The position numbers and the translations under genes are program-made. A stretch of 5,707 nucleotides of DNA from a virus (taxonomy: Duplodnaviria; Heunggongvirae; Uroviricota; Caudoviricetes), in the IMG/VR virus record IMGVR_UViG_2744054447_000008; one strand, 5' to 3'. The notes below the pieces were generated by a model, which was not told the origin of the DNA, searched no databases, and saw only the letters and a program-made list of their open reading frames with translations. Numbering within the stretch: the first letter of the stretch is position 1; each line of letters starts with the position of its first letter. Of the stretch, positions 565 to 5,707 are shown piece after piece.

Positions 565-855
565 ATGACAACCGGCGGCCATCCACCGCCTGAATACGCG
601 CAGAAGTCTCTATATGTTCAGCAGCCCAGCTTACGGGCAGGAGTTTTTATGGTTCATCAACATTACGGAACGCAGACCGTTAATCGCGGTGCGGTCATGC
701 CAGGAATGCTGGTCAAACACAAAGATGGTACCTGGACTGCATCAGCTAATTTACGCGGACGGCTTTATCTGCATCGCGGCATCGAGCGCACTTATACCCG
801 TGATTTGCTCGTGGAAGTTTTTCTCGACGGACGCGGCAACGGCCTGAATCACTAA
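565..855 (+). CDS. Hypothetical protein occupying the position of lambda kil, immediately upstream of gam; no recognisable homology
   Basis: 96-codon ORF with a GAGG motif (551-554) 10 nt before the ATG. Codon usage is dominated by common enteric codons (ctg, gcg, cgc, ggc). Its stop lies 75 bp before the gam start, inside the short gam-leader stretch that I recall as conserved with lambda. An overlapping 77-aa ORF in another frame (614..847) is the alternative. Confidence 0.4.
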
Positions 856-930: not shown

Positions 931-1227
931 ATGAACGCTTATTACATTCAGGATCGTCTTGAGGCTCAAAGCTGGGCGCGTCACTACCAGCAGATCGCCC
1001 GTGAAGAGAAAGAGGCAGAACTGGCAGACGACATGGAAAAAGGTCTTCCACAGCACCTGTTTGAATCACTCTGCATCGATCATTTGCAACGCTGCGGGGC
1101 CAGCAAAAAAGCCATTACCCGTGCGTTTGATGACGATGTTGAGTTTCAGGAGCGCATGGCAGAACACATCCGGTACATGGTTGAAACCATTGCTCACCAC
1201 CATGTTGATATTGATTCAGAGGTATAA
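931..1227 (+). CDS. gam: Gam, host RecBCD nuclease inhibitor (short GamS form, 98 aa)
   Basis: Translation [44 protein letters not shown]...[12 protein letters not shown] matches lambda Gam as I recall it, apart from a few substitutions. AGGAG at 919-923 sits 7 nt before the ATG. An in-frame stop at 874-876 rules out a long N-terminal extension. Confidence 0.93.
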
Positions 1228-1232
1228 AACGG

Positions 1233-2018
1233 ATGAGTACAGCACTCGCAACGCTGGCTGGGAAGCTGGCTGAACGTGTCGGCATGGATTCTGTCGACCC
1301 ACAGGAACTGATCACCACTCTTCGTCAGACGGCATTTAAAGGTGATGCCAGCGATGCGCAGTTCATCGCATTGCTGATCGTCGCCAACCAGTACGGCCTT
1401 AATCCGTGGACGAAAGAAATTTACGCCTTCCCTGATAAGCAGAACGGCATCGTTCCGGTGGTGGGCGTTGATGGCTGGTCCCGCATCATCAATGAAAACC
1501 AGCAGTTTGATGGCATGGACTTTGAGCAGGACAATGAATCATGTACGTGCCGGATTTACCGCAAAGACCGCAATCATCCGATCTGCGTTACCGAATGGAT
1601 GGATGAATGCCGCCGCGAACCATTCAAAACTCGCGAAGGCAGAGAAATCACGGGGCCGTGGCAGTCGCATCCCAAACGGATGTTACGGCATAAAGCCATG
1701 ATTCAGTGTGCCCGTCTGGCCTTCGGATTTGCTGGTATCTATGACAAGGATGAAGCCGAGCGCATTGTCGAAAATACTGCATACACTGCGGAACGTCAGC
1801 CGGAACGCGACATCACTCCGGTTAACGATGAAACCATGCAGGAGATTAACACTCTGCTGATTGCCCTGGACAAAACATGGGATGACGACTTATTGCCGCT
1901 CTGTTCCCAGATATTTCGCCGCGACATTCGCGCATCGTCAGAACTGACACAGGCCGAAGCAGTGAAAGCTCTTGGATTCCTGAAACAGAAAGCCACTGAG
2001 CAGAAGGTGGCAGCATGA
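1233..2018 (+). CDS. bet: Bet (Red-beta) single-strand annealing recombinase, 261 aa
   Basis: Translation [82 protein letters not shown]... is the lambda Bet sequence with very few differences. The start is 5 nt after the gam stop, with AGAGG at 1218-1222. Confidence 0.97.
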
Positions 2019-2695
2019 CACCGGACATTATCCTGCAGCGTACCGGGATCGACGTGAGAGCTGTCGAACAGGGGGATGATGCATGGCACAAATTACGGCT
2101 CGGCGTCATCACCGCTTCAGAAGTTCACAACGTGATAGCAAAGCCCCGCTCAGGAAAGAAGTGGCCTGACATGAAAATGTCCTACTTCCACACCCTGCTG
2201 GCTGAGGTTTGCACCGGTGTGGCTCCGGAAGTTAATGCTAAGGCGCTGGCGTGGGGAAAACAGTACGAGAACGACGCCAGAACCCTGTTTGAATTCACTT
2301 CCGGCGTGAATGTTACTGAATCCCCGATCATCTATCGCGACGAAAGTATGCGCACCGCCTGCTCTCCCGATGGTTTATGCAGTGACGGCAATGGCCTTGA
2401 GCTGAAATGCCCGTTTACCTCCCGGGATTTCATGAAGTTCCGGCTCGGTGGTTTCGAGGCCATAAAGTCGGCTTACATGGCCCAGGTGCAGTACAGCATG
2501 TGGGTGACACGAAAAGATGCCTGGTACTTTGCCAACTATGACCCACGAATGAAGCGTGAAGGCCTGCATTATGTCGTGGTTGAGCGGGATGAAAAGTACA
2601 TGGCGAGTTTTGACGAGATGGTGCCGGAGTTCATCGAAAAAATGGACGAAGCACTGGCTGAAATTGGTTTTGTATTTGGAGAGCAATGGCGATGA
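2015..2695 (+). CDS. exo: Exo (Red-alpha) 5'-3' dsDNA exonuclease, 226 aa
   Basis: Translation [94 protein letters not shown]... matches lambda Exo. The start ATG overlaps the bet stop (ATGA at 2015-2018). Confidence 0.97.
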
Positions 2696-2874
2696 CCCAT
2701 CCTCACGATAATATCCGGGTAGGCGCGATCACTTTCGTCTACTCCGTTACAAAGCGAGGCTGGGTATTTCACGGTCTTTCTGTTATCCGAAATCCGCTGA
2801 AAGCCCAGCGGCTGGCTGAGGAGATAAATAATAAACGGGGGGCGGTATGCACAAAGCATCTCCTGTTGAGTTAA
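2692..2874 (+). CDS. Small early-left protein, lambda orf60a-like (60 aa), function unknown
   Basis: Translation [60 protein letters not shown]. The ATG at 2692 overlaps the exo stop (ATGA), and the position after exo matches lambda. The ORF track's alternative start at 2686 would add two residues. Confidence 0.7.
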
Positions 2875-3038
2875 GAACGAGTATTGATTTGGCACATAGC
2901 CTTGCTCAAATTGGAGTCAGGTTTGTGCCAATACCAGCAGAAACAGACGAAGAATTTCATACGTTAGCCACATCCCTTTCACAAAAGCTGGAAATGATGG
3001 TGGCGAAAGCAGAAGCAGATGAGAGAGACCAGGTATGA
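2847..3038 (+). CDS. Small early-left protein, lambda orf63-like (63 aa), function unknown
   Basis: Translation [63 protein letters not shown]. It overlaps the 3' end of the preceding gene by 28 nt in another frame. Position and length fit lambda orf63 from memory. Confidence 0.7.
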   Translation: MHKASPVELRTSIDLAHSLAQIGVRFVPIPAETDEEFHTLATSLSQKLEMMVAKAEADERDQV

Positions 3039-3118: not shown

Positions 3119-3330
3119 CACCTCAGCAAGAAAATGCCCTTCGCAGCATTGCCCGTCAGGCTAATTCTGAAATCAAAAAAGTCAGACAGCAGTTTCCGGA
3201 TAAAAACGTCAATGACATTTGCCGTAGCGTACTGAAGAAGCACCGCGAAACGGTAACGCTGAAGGGATTCACACCGACTCATTTAAGCCTGGCAATCGGC
3301 ATGTTAAACGGCGTCTTTAAGGAACGATGA
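3049..3330 (+). CDS. Small early-left protein, lambda orf61-like; start uncertain (ATG 3049 for 93 aa, or GTG 3115 for 71 aa)
   Basis: The C-terminal part VTPQQENALRSIARQANSEIKKVRQQFPDKNVNDICRSVLKKHRETVTLKGFTPTHLSLAIGMLNGVFKER looks like a real protein. The N-terminal 22 residues from the 3049 start (MHFSGSGLHILCAYACRHGACS) are poor and overlap the hydrophobic micropeptide frame. GGGG at 3103-3106 would serve as a ribosome-binding site for the GTG at 3115. Confidence 0.55.
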   Translation: MHFSGSGLHILCAYACRHGACSVTPQQENALRSIARQANSEIKKVRQQFPDKNVNDICRSVLKKHRETVTLKGFTPTHLSLAIGMLNGVFKER

Positions 3331-3350
3331 ACATGAAAAGCAAAATTATC

Positions 3351-3376
3351 AGGGAGCTACAGGCTCCTTTTTTATT
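3351..3376 (+). terminator. Candidate intrinsic (rho-independent) terminator inside the operon
   Basis: Stem GGAGC (3353-3357) pairs with GCTCC (3363-3367) around a 5-nt loop, extendable by two weak pairs, followed directly by TTTTTTATT (3368-3376). It lies 20 bp after the orf61-like stop. Confidence 0.4.
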
Positions 3377-3428
3377 GTTCGCATTCACCCTCAAGCGTAT
3401 TAACCAACAGTTCAGGGATTAATGAAAG

Positions 3429-3650
3429 ATGGCAGACATCATTGATTCAGCATCAGAAATAGAAGAATTACAGCGCAACACAGCAATAAAAATGCGCCGC
3501 CTGAACTACCTAGCTGTATCTGCCACTCATTGTTGTGAGTGTGGCGATCCGATAGATGAACGAAGACGCCTGGCCGTTCAGGGTTGTCGGACTTGCGCCA
3601 GTTGCCAGCAAGATCTGGAGCTTATCCGCAAACAAAGGGGGATTAAGTGA
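3429..3650 (+). CDS. TraR/DksA-family C4 zinc-finger protein (RNA-polymerase secondary-channel binder type), 73 aa
   Basis: Translation MADIIDSASEIEELQRNTAIKMRRLNYLAVSATHCCECGDPIDERRRLAVQGCRTCASCQQDLELIRKQRGIK. The CxxC-x17-CxxC spacing and the CE(x)CGxPI(x)ExRR core match TraR/DksA-type zinc fingers (compare F-plasmid TraR ...CEACGNPIPEARRKIFPGVTLCVEC...). Confidence 0.85.
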   Translation: MADIIDSASEIEELQRNTAIKMRRLNYLAVSATHCCECGDPIDERRRLAVQGCRTCASCQQDLELIRKQRGIK

Positions 3651-3976
3651 TGGCTAACCTGCAACTTGCTGTTAAAAGTGAATACTTCGATGCCATGATT
3701 CGCGGAGAGAAAACGGAAGAGTATCGCTTGTGTAATGACTACTGGAATAAGCGAATTATGTTCCGGGAATATGACCGCCTGATTATCACAAAGGGATATC
3801 CGAAGCGCGACGATTCCAGTCGCAGAATTGATGTTCCGTATGACGGATATGAAGTGAAGACAATCACACATCCGCACTTTGGCGATAAACCGGTAAAGGT
3901 GTTCGCTATAAAGGTGAATATCAGCACTGAATATCAATCCGCACAACACAAGGTCAAGAATGTTCAGAGTGATTGA
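3650..3976 (+). CDS. ASCH-domain / DUF3850-like protein (PUA-like fold), 108 aa
   Basis: Translation MANLQLAVKSEYFDAMIRGEKTEEYRLCNDYWNKRIMFREYDRLIITKGYP... The N-terminal SEYFDAMIRGEKTEEYR matches the ASCH GxKxxExR motif exactly (GEKTEEYR). The ATG overlaps the preceding stop (TGATG at 3648-3652); an in-frame GTG at 3647 is the alternative start. Confidence 0.7.
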   Translation: MANLQLAVKSEYFDAMIRGEKTEEYRLCNDYWNKRIMFREYDRLIITKGYPKRDDSSRRIDVPYDGYEVKTITHPHFGDKPVKVFAIKVNISTEYQSAQHKVKNVQSD

Positions 3977-4199
3977 CCCTAACACCTGGTACGTCGACCA
4001 CCACGGCACTCCCTGCAAAATCCTGCGTTCTACCCACAACAAAGTTCACTACATCCGAAAAGGCAGAACATGTATCGCCAGCATGTTCCGCTTTAATCAT
4101 GACTTTGAACCTGTGAATAAAGCTGATGCAGATCGGATAGCAGAAGAGATCGAAACGGCAGAACACATTAAGAAGTTACGTGACATGCGCAGGAAATAG
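3960..4199 (+). CDS. Hypothetical 79-aa protein, His/Cys-containing N-terminal half and charged helical C-terminus
   Basis: Translation MFRVIDPNTWYVDHHGTPCKILRSTHNKVHYIRKGRTCIASMFRFNHDFEPVNKADADRIAEEIETAEHIKKLRDMRRK. AGG at 3951-3953 sits 6 nt before the ATG. It overlaps the preceding gene's end by 17 nt and is co-oriented with the operon. I recognise no family with confidence. Confidence 0.55.
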   Translation: MFRVIDPNTWYVDHHGTPCKILRSTHNKVHYIRKGRTCIASMFRFNHDFEPVNKADADRIAEEIETAEHIKKLRDMRRK

Positions 4200-4338
4200 A
4201 AAAATTGATAAATTCAATACTGCATTTCTCAGCATTAAATTTATCTCTATGACCAGTCAAGAGATGTACCTGCCATGAGCTTAATATCATGTCAGATATA
4301 TCGGTCACAAACTCCCTCAGCAGCTAAGAGGAGGACAA
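4200..4338 (+). promoter_or_regulatory. AT-rich intergenic region upstream of xis with an 8-bp inverted repeat and a strong ribosome-binding site; candidate operator or promoter region
   Basis: GATAAATT (4207-4214) and AATTTATC (4238-4245) are inverted repeats flanking two GCATT copies. TAATAT at 4282-4287 resembles a -10 element, but I found no well-spaced -35. GAGGAGG at 4328-4334 lies 4 nt before the xis ATG. Confidence 0.25.
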
Positions 4339-4575
4339 ATGTCTCGACTAATCACTTTACAGGACTGGGCTAAAGAAGAATTTGGGGACTTAGCACCAAG
4401 TGAGCGAGTTCTGAAAAAATACGCGCAAGGGAAAATGATGGCCCCACCCGCTATAAAAGTTGGTCGCTACTGGATGATTGACCGAAATTCCCGTTTTGTA
4501 GGAACGCTTGCAGAACCGCAACTCCCAATAAACGCAAACCCAAAACTCCAAAGGATAATCGCTGATGGCTGCTAG
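4339..4575 (+). CDS. xis: Excisionase (Xis-type recombination directionality factor), 78 aa
   Basis: Translation MSRLITLQDWAKEEFGDLAPSERVLKKYAQGKMMAPPAIKVGRYWMIDRNSRFVG... aligns by eye with lambda Xis (MYLTLQEWNARQRR...PPPVKDGREYLFHESA): the LTLQ(D/E)W and PP-hydrophobic-K-x-G-R-aromatic blocks are shared. It sits immediately upstream of int and overlaps it by 11 nt, and has a strong ribosome-binding site. Confidence 0.8.
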   Translation: MSRLITLQDWAKEEFGDLAPSERVLKKYAQGKMMAPPAIKVGRYWMIDRNSRFVGTLAEPQLPINANPKLQRIIADGC

Positions 4576-5707
4576 ACCCCGATCTCACAAAATCTCTATA
4601 CCCAATTTATATTGCAAATTAGATAAGCGAACCGGAAAGGTATATTGGCAATACAAACATCCACTATCCGGTCGTTTTCATAGCTTAGGAACTGATGAGA
4701 ATGAAGCAAAACAAGTTGCTACTGAAGCAAATACCATTATTGCTGAACAACGTACCAGACAAATATTAAGCGTCAATGAGCGTCTGGAAAGAATGAAAGG
4801 CAGGCGCTCAGACATTACGGTGACAGAATGGCTTGATAAATATATTTCTATCCAAGAGGACAGGCTGCAACATAATGAACTAAGACCCAACTCCTATCGG
4901 CAAAAAGGCAAACCCATTCGTCTTTTCCGTGAGCATTGTGGAATGCAACACCTCAAGGATATTACCGCACTTGATATTGCCGAAATAATTGATGCTGTAA
5001 AGGCTGAAGGTCATAACAGGATGGCGCAAGTCGTGAGAATGGTGTTGATCGACGTCTTCAAAGAAGCACAACACGCAGGACATGTTCCGCCAGGATTTAA
5101 CCCAGCGCAGGCAACAAAACAACCGCGAAATCGAGTAAACCGCCAAAGATTGTCACTGCCCGAATGGCAGGCAATATTTGACAGCGTAAGCAGACGGCAG
5201 CCCTATTTAAAATGCGGCATGCTACTTGCTCTTGTTACTGGACAACGTTTAGGCGATATCTGCAATTTGAAATTCTCTGATATATGGGACGACATGTTGC
5301 ACATTACTCAGGAAAAAACCGGTTCAAAACTTGCTATTCCGCTTAACCTGAAATGCGATGCTCTGAATATTACCCTTCGTGAAGTTATATCTCAGTGCAG
5401 GGATGCTGTTGTTAGTAAATATCTGGTCCATTACCGTCACACTACCTCTCAAGCAAACAGAGGAGACCAGGTTTCTGCAAATACTCTGACAACGGCTTTT
5501 AAAAAGGCCCGGGAAAAATGTGGCATAAAATGGGAGCAAGGAACTGCGCCCACATTTCATGAGCAGCGATCTCTGTCAGAACGGTTATATCGGGAACAGG
5601 GTCTGGATACGCAAAAGTTGTTAGGCCATAAATCCAGAAAAATGACCGACCGATACAATGATGATCGTGGTAAAGACTGGATTATCGTAGATATCAAAAC
5701 AGCATAG
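4565..5707 (+). CDS. int: Lambda-family tyrosine integrase (site-specific recombinase), 380 aa
   Basis: The N-terminal arm-binding region (RPRSHKISIPNLY...RTGKVY) resembles lambda Int (RRRSHERRDLPPNLY...RTGKEF). The catalytic region carries LVTGQRLGDIC, the HEQRSLSERLY box, LLGHKS and the tyrosine in DRYNDDRG, matching lambda's AVVTGQRVGDLC / HELRSLSARLY / LLGHKS / YRDDRG. AAGGA at 4551-4555 precedes the start, and the TAG stop is the last three bases of the window. Confidence 0.95.
   Translation: MAARPRSHKISIPNLYCKLDKRTGKVYWQYKHPLSGRFHSLGTDENEAKQVATEANTIIAEQRTRQILSVNERLERMKGRRSDITVTEWLDKYISIQEDRLQHNELRPNSYRQKGKPIRLFREHCGMQHLKDITALDIAEIIDAVKAEGHNRMAQVVRMVLIDVFKEAQHAGHVPPGFNPAQATKQPRNRVNRQRLSLPEWQAIFDSVSRRQPYLKCGMLLALVTGQRLGDICNLKFSDIWDDMLHITQEKTGSKLAIPLNLKCDALNITLREVISQCRDAVVSKYLVHYRHTTSQANRGDQVSANTLTTAFKKAREKCGIKWEQGTAPTFHEQRSLSERLYREQGLDTQKLLGHKSRKMTDRYNDDRGKDWIIVDIKTA

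Follow-up and report, generated by a model that had tools for sequence, protein, structure and literature searches.

Gene Content of the Locus

The window, by which we mean the whole 5,707-nucleotide stretch of viral DNA analysed, carries the arm of a lambdoid pL operon followed by xis and int, which together make up an icd-site integration module of the phage-21 type (Table 1). Three small genes, here called P1, P2 and P3, lie on one strand between the Red module and xis, at the coordinates and with the two overlaps that a preliminary description had given them. The stop codon of P1 (TGA, 3648-3650) has one base in common with the start codon of P2 (ATG, 3650-3652), producing a TGATG overlap, and the last 17 nt of P2 (3960-3976) are also the first 17 nt of P3.

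Table 1. Genes and other features of the window
Feature	Position	Strand	Remark
kil	565-855	+	lambdoid pL-operon arm
gam	931-1227	+	
bet	1233-2018	+	
exo	2015-2695	+	left boundary gene of the interval that holds P1-P3
orf60a (DUF1317)	2686-2874	+	conserved proximal exo-xis gene
orf63 (DUF1382)	2847-3038	+	conserved proximal exo-xis gene
orf61 homologue, intact, 93 aa	3049-3330	+	conserved proximal exo-xis gene
31-aa ORF	3327-3422	+	conserved; contains terminator-like hairpin
Terminator-like hairpin and T-run, between orf61 and orf73	3351-3379 (hairpin 3351-3369)	+	8-bp stem
P1, lambda Orf73 orthologue, 73 aa	3429-3650	+	
P2, stand-alone divergent ASCH (PUA-like) domain, 108 aa	3650-3976	+	
Junction-specific stretch between ASCH and DUF4222 cassettes	3941-3955	+	
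P3, DUF4222 (RgdR-family) protein, 79 aa	3960-4199	+	
xis, phage-21-type excisionase	4339-4575	+	100% identical to phage 21
int, phage-21-type integrase	4565 to window end (5707)	+	99% identical to phage 21

The block has close published relatives. A query spanning 3300-4340 (1,041 bp) is 99.9% identical to phages ev207 (NC_049949) and PhiR63_2 and 97.6% identical to phage 21 (OL657228), and phage records already annotate the three genes as a zinc-finger or DksA-like protein, an ASCH-domain or hypothetical protein, and a DUF4222 protein. The first 930 bases instead match other lambdoid phages: bases 247-930 match PhiR34_1 and Turner, unlike ev207 or phage 21, and bases 1-246 had no near match in the phage collection. 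The window is thus a mosaic relative and probably a resident prophage.

The left end has some further peculiarities. No long ORF is present in bases 1-560, the place of ea10/ssb and cIII in phage 21, and a separate cIII ORF is absent from the window's ORF list. An Rfam match to AfaR at 154-364 falls below threshold (32 bits against 100, E 0.009) and is probably due to chance. At 96 aa, the ORF of the Kil homologue exceeds the kil annotated in lambda and in phage 21 (47 aa); its match to phrog_294 covers residues 20-96.

In lambda, the corresponding region between exo and xis (orf60a-orf63-orf61-orf73-ea22-ea8.5-orf55) belongs to the same operon, with the same gene order and strand, and in both genomes it is an early, non-essential accessory region. 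The lambda region has been investigated by the Wegrzyn, Donaldson and Gourse/Court groups. The order kil-gam-bet-exo-orf60a-orf63-orf61-[31-aa ORF/t2]-orf73 is common to the two, with protein identities of 89-100% for the genes from orf60a to orf73. Beyond orf73, lambda continues with ea22, ea8.5 and orf55, whereas the window continues with the ASCH gene, the DUF4222 gene and the phage-21-type xis and int. The proposal that all three genes occupy lambda's variable ea22/ea8.5 slot thus holds for P2 and P3, which replace ea22, ea8.5 and orf55, but not for P1, since lambda has orf73 at that place. Indeed, orf73 has been counted among the five conserved exo-xis genes and not among the variable ones (PMC8614690). 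It is unannotated in the lambda RefSeq record, where the 73-aa ORF lies between ea22 and orf61.

The orf61 gene also differs between the two genomes. The intact protein of the window covers 93 of the 101 positions of phrog_303. The corresponding coding sequence of lambda (comparison region L003 3213-3525, minus strand) is split between the annotated orf61 (61 aa) and an ORF of 60 aa in a different frame, and lambda's orf61 thus gives the impression of having undergone a frameshift.

All three proteins of the block match PHROG families (P1, phrog_54, E 2.5e-25; P2, phrog_625, E 2.5e-51; P3, phrog_285, E 6.3e-37), and their homologues span several Enterobacteriaceae genera at 63-95% identity. 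Because of these strong matches and this spread, we conclude from their sequences that P1, P2 and P3 are genuine conserved genes.

P1 Is an Orthologue of Lambda Orf73

P1 aligns with lambda Orf73 without gaps, with 66 of 73 residues identical (about 90%), 69 of 73 similar and seven substitutions. It passes the Pfam threshold for PF01258 (zf-dskA_traR; 36 bits against a gathering score of 24.9), in agreement with its earlier classification as a TraR-type protein, and marginally misses the cut-off of NCBIfam TIGR02419 (C4_traR_proteo; 55.1 bits against 59.7, E 8.7e-15). Its sequence matches in the PDB are TraR and YbiI, with both of which the CxxC-17-CxxC arrangement aligns.

Like F-plasmid TraR and lambda Orf73, P1 is a 73-aa protein with an N-terminal DxxDxA motif, a C4 zinc finger and an acidic C-terminal helix. 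The DxxDxA motif (D3-I-I-D6-S-A8) is the one that reaches the active-site region of RNA polymerase (RNAP) (PMC9239242, PMC8614690). Two finer details are specifically those of lambda Orf73: in the globular domain both proteins have ExxRL, a variant of ExxRK, and both have the same six cysteines, namely those of the zinc finger and two extra ones, which have been proposed to limit transcription activation.

Purified lambda Orf73 binds RNAP, inhibits ribosomal-protein promoters and, without ppGpp, rRNA promoters, and works alone in vitro; it slows host growth, and phage yield after induction rises about 4-fold (PMC9239242). By near-identity to this protein, P1, a TraR/DksA-family C4 zinc-finger protein, is predicted to bind the RNAP secondary channel without contacting DNA. 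It would shut down rRNA and ribosomal-protein promoters and raise phage yield. As far as the first gene is concerned, then, the undescribed host-takeover function once suggested for this block has already been described, in lambda (PMC9239242).

P2 Is a Divergent ASCH Domain

The reading frame of P2 could open at GTG 3647, giving 109 aa, but its true start is ATG 3650, because all homologues begin MANLQ; RefSeq and the phage 21 record both annotate this start. P2 belongs to a large family (1,253 clusters at 50% identity, E up to 1e-3) and has diverged too far to reach the Pfam threshold of either ASCH or DUF3850. It scores 14.3 bits against Pfam ASCH (PF04266), below the gathering score of 21.2. 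Of the 27 members of one alignment, 13 match ASCH, none with an E-value better than 0.035; in a diverse alignment of 42 members, four match ASCH (best E 0.003) and two match DUF3850 (PF12961, best E 0.0017). NCBIfam searches with P2 and P3 gave no match, and PDB sequence and profile searches with both proteins, run with single sequences and with alignments A1, A3 and A5, gave nothing meaningful.

The predicted model of P2 shows the ASCH beta-barrel, whose first two strands are separated by a helix as in YqfB, TthASCH, EOLA1, the TRIP4 ASCH domain, ZmASCH and the DUF3850 structure 3iuw, and a fold search with it returned ASCH structures first, followed by YTH, EVE and PUA relatives. P2 also carries the GxKxxExR motif defined for ASCH proteins (PMC6803910), in a GKER-type octapeptide (G19-E-K21-T-E-E24-Y-R26) placed between helix 1 (H10-17) and strand 2 (E23-27) of the model; in EOLA1 the motif lies at the equal place and even has equal numbering. 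All four defining residues (G19, K21, E24 and R26) are unchanged across 27 close homologues. In a more diverse set of 42 (37-76% identity), K21 still never varies, and conservation of the other three is at least 90%. The preliminary assignment of the second gene as ASCH-like is therefore upheld by fold and motif, at a sub-threshold Pfam score. Judged by its model and its octapeptide, P2 is a minimal, divergent ASCH domain with a catalytic-type GKER motif.

What such a domain might do is suggested by a 2026 preprint, in which 19 of 19 tested ASCH proteins, GKER-type members included, removed N4-acetylcytidine (ac4C) from tRNA, the Lys and the Glu/Thr being essential for the removal (10.64898/2026.02.27.708502). 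Our best guess is that P2 would be a small nucleoside- or RNA-directed amidohydrolase or a modified-base binder and, because those 19 proteins removed ac4C from tRNA, the concrete candidate activity would be ac4C deacetylation, with host tRNA or free ac4C as the substrate. Elongator tRNA-Met of E. coli carries N4-acetylcytidine.

P3 Belongs to the DUF4222/RgdR Family

The third gene had been thought to lack a recognisable family. On the contrary, P3 matches Pfam DUF4222 (PF13973) over profile positions 2-53 of 53, with 68.5 bits against a cut-off of 27 (E 3.6e-19), and the family has one studied member: RgdR (ECs1581), from the cryptic prophage CP-933C (Sp7) of enterohaemorrhagic E. coli (EHEC) O157:H7 (PMC3378721, PMC10877973). 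A search with the RgdR sequence confirmed its DUF4222 domain (82 bits, E 2.1e-23). Like P3, RgdR is small and prophage-borne and has a C-terminal helical region after the DUF4222 domain. By these profile matches, P3 is a DUF4222/RgdR-family protein.

The two proteins are nonetheless distant. RgdR has 99 aa against the 79 of P3, and they are 24% identical over 68 aligned residues. The RGD motif of RgdR is absent from P3, and the alignment begins beyond that motif (residues 20-22 of RgdR). RgdR is an activator of the LEE1 promoter and a repressor of motility, and its binding to DNA is no more than weak and non-specific; its RGD motif is important for activating type III secretion (PMC3378721).

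P3 had also been called His/Cys-rich, a weak description: it has six His and two Cys in 79 aa, and C38 alone aligns with a Cys of RgdR. A metal site was considered and rejected, as the residues are not conserved in RgdR. The AlphaFold model of P3 (pLDDT 88.6) predicts an SH3/Tudor-like barrel of five strands, with a long and charged helix at the C-terminus. A fold search of BFVD with this model returned only uncharacterised small phage proteins and DUF1653, a comparison weakened by the non-specific fold matches that SH3-like barrels give. We infer that P3 may be a small, pleiotropic modulator of host transcription, acting through protein contacts or nucleic-acid contacts of low specificity.

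The Block Lies Downstream of the Predicted Terminator t2

The hairpin between orf61 and orf73 is near-identical in lambda and phage 21, and its sequence is listed as the predicted terminator t2 in lambda and phage 24B; the lambda genes beyond it (orf73, ea22, ea8.5) have lower mRNA levels (PMC4195576). A search with an E-value limit of 1 found no Rfam RNA family in 3300-4400. No convincing plus-strand promoter was found inside the block either, the sole promoter-like site near P3 being on the opposite strand. An internal promoter for P3 was rejected: promoter-like matches are no commoner than in shuffled sequence.

We infer that the block is probably expressed when N-antiterminated pL transcription reads through t2. 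From the position of the block downstream of t2 it would follow that P1, P2 and P3 are made as delayed-early products by N-modified polymerase, and their compact overlaps would couple their translation.

The 31-aa ORF spans the t2 hairpin. Its protein is 100% identical in lambda and is annotated in phage 21 as a 'putative secreted protein', and ribosome profiling cited in a review points to translation of a 31-aa peptide from this part of lambda (PMC8614690). Translation of this ORF across the terminator stem could affect termination.

The Three Genes Are Mostly Found Apart

The preliminary description had read the tight coupling of the genes as a sign of joint action and had named, in advance, co-occurrence of the trio in other genomes as the test. 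Each gene proved far commoner without the full trio. Among 5,426 complete E. coli genomes, orf73-like genes were found at 4,707 places in 3,310 genomes, ASCH genes at 1,851 places in 1,487 (about 27%) and DUF4222 genes at 2,475 places in 2,347 (about 43%); the contiguous trio, counted when at least 80% of its 771 bp was present, occurred in 593. In 567 records the best match to the trio was at least 99% identical, which suggests that these near-identical copies represent one successful prophage lineage.

IMG/VR gave a similar picture. We compared 159 loci anchored on P2 or P3, taking the 80 best matches of each and not a random sample. Because the loci are the best-matching ones, the fractions that follow for the trio are upper bounds: the full trio was present in 19 of the 80 ASCH-anchored loci, and 23 of these 80 had DUF4222 downstream of ASCH. 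Among the 80 best DUF4222-anchored loci, 64 had orf73 followed directly by DUF4222, with a gap of about 50 nt and no ASCH gene. Elsewhere ASCH occurs as orf73-ASCH-orf55 before a lambda-type xis/int, as ea22-...-ASCH, or with no Red module upstream, and the arrangement ea22-...-ASCH-DUF4222-xis21 was seen as well.

In other species, for which one genome per species (GTDB) was scanned with alignment A1, DUF4222 was nearby in 0 of 13 flanked ASCH loci, and just one of the 13 had a TraR-like gene, at a distance of 1.1 kb. In five GTDB loci (L164, L165, L167, L169 and L177) the ASCH homologue lies in a nin-like region, beside a gene that by eye resembles NinB and with further putative late-regulatory genes. 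Because other-species ASCH genes sit in such a region, the ASCH cassette appears to move between the two accessory regions, exo-xis and nin, that lambdoid genomes have. In Citrobacter the pre-xis slot is likewise taken by DUF4222 genes, without ASCH and beside NinX or beside TraR and a 41-aa ORF. In both Citrobacter loci examined a DUF7694 gene follows DUF4222 with an overlap (L178, 4233-4574; L179, 4236-4577); DUF7694, which is absent from the window, is a possible recurrent partner of DUF4222.

Co-occurrence of the trio across independent lineages was thus not found in the IMG/VR, E. coli or other-species loci. The only recurrent linkage was ASCH-DUF4222-xis21-int21, which stands behind at least two different upstream contexts (L004 and L024 types). 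Since these four genes travel together, a pairwise link between P2 and P3 keeps some small room.

The Overlaps Are Best Read as Cassette Joints

The breaks in homology coincide with the gene borders. Loci with ASCH only match the window up to 3940, their core starting at 3647 or 3651, and loci with DUF4222 only match it from 3956 to 4189. Between these limits the ASCH frame crosses 3941-3955 and runs on to a stop codon at 3974-3976, and so the 17-nt overlap arises. The conserved core of P2 (3650-3940) is only about 95 residues long. Most homologues have 93-96 aa and lack the C-terminal tail (residues 98-108; 11-15 extra residues), which is lineage-specific and, in the model, predicted to be disordered; the 17-nt overlap is therefore a consequence of the joint. 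The genes are mostly found apart, the breaks fall at gene borders, and DUF4222 is missing beside all 13 other-species ASCH loci; for these reasons the best reading of the overlaps is as cassette joints and not as a sign of joint action.

The 139-nt spacer between DUF4222 and xis contains an AT-rich inverted repeat with a 16-bp stem (4207-4245), which scores as terminator-like on the minus strand. With DUF4222-only homology ending at 4189, the repeat belongs to the xis21/int21 side of the joint.

Discussion

These results make it probable that the block is the distal, pL-transcribed part of the exo-xis region in a lambdoid prophage of the phage-21/ev207 type, and that it consists of three independently exchangeable genes, not of a co-evolved unit. 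The trio would be one of several cassette arrangements found in the exo-xis slot. As a piece of DNA it is ordinary, having already been sequenced and annotated.

Four other readings deserve consideration. In one, P2, P3 or both would serve counter-defence, P2 by binding or destroying a modified-nucleotide alarm signal or P3 by inhibiting a defence protein. Both genes lie in an early-expressed, highly variable accessory slot, P2 homologues hop between two such regions, and domains of the PUA/ASCH clan recognise modified bases; a PUA-Cal-HAD defence system, moreover, is triggered by m6-dAMP (10.64898/2026.01.15.699771). We consider this reading unlikely all the same, as P2 and P3 are both very widespread and conserved, unlike typical fast-evolving anti-defence genes, no conserved anti-defence marker was seen in their neighbourhood at the examined loci, and no literature link to counter-defence was found for either. 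PADLOC models were also unmatched, a weak test given that the library comprises defence and not anti-defence genes.

It is similarly improbable that the distal exo-xis slot is a toolbox of small proteins for reprogramming host expression at several levels, in which Orf73 acts at the RNAP secondary channel, DUF4222 would bind the RNAP surface through its Tudor-like barrel, by analogy with the interaction domains of UvrD, CarD and Mfd, and the phage ASCH protein would be an eraser that strips ac4C from host tRNA or a sponge for modified-nucleotide alarm signals. If this were true, the slot would provide the first eraser of RNA modification to come from a phage and, in addition, a new class of phage factors that bind RNAP.

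P3 might alternatively act in the lysogen and not in lytic development, as an RgdR-like regulator of virulence or motility, a case of lysogenic conversion. The effects of RgdR on LEE1 and motility, exerted from a cryptic prophage (PMC3378721), and the presence of DUF4222 in 2,347 of the 5,426 complete E. coli genomes are consistent with such a role. P3, however, is encoded in the pL operon, which is repressed in the lysogen, and no plus-strand promoter-like site was found upstream of it. RgdR itself sits in a different, P4-like element beside a primase and, given the low identity of the two proteins and the missing RGD motif in P3, we regard a lysogenic role as quite unlikely. Finally, the view that the trio is one co-expressed module of undescribed host takeover, for instance a complex on RNAP or RNA, with overlaps selected for stoichiometry, is very unlikely, because most occurrences of each gene are outside the trio, copies of the trio are close to clonal, the breakpoints lie at gene borders with the longer overlap arising from a lineage-specific, disordered tail, other-species ASCH loci lack DUF4222, and lambda Orf73 functions alone in vitro (PMC9239242).

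The reading of P1, P2 and P3 as exchangeable cassettes has practical consequences. What looks like operon-type coupling has arisen as a by-product of the shuffling of cassettes, and the trio therefore has no priority as a functional module. Published phages, and E. coli prophages by the hundred, have near-identical DNA with identical annotations; of the three genes, just one, lambda's own orf73, has a known mechanism. The ASCH and DUF4222 genes are nevertheless very common in E. coli, and for the ASCH protein ac4C deacetylation by way of the GKER octapeptide would be a cheap and concrete hypothesis.
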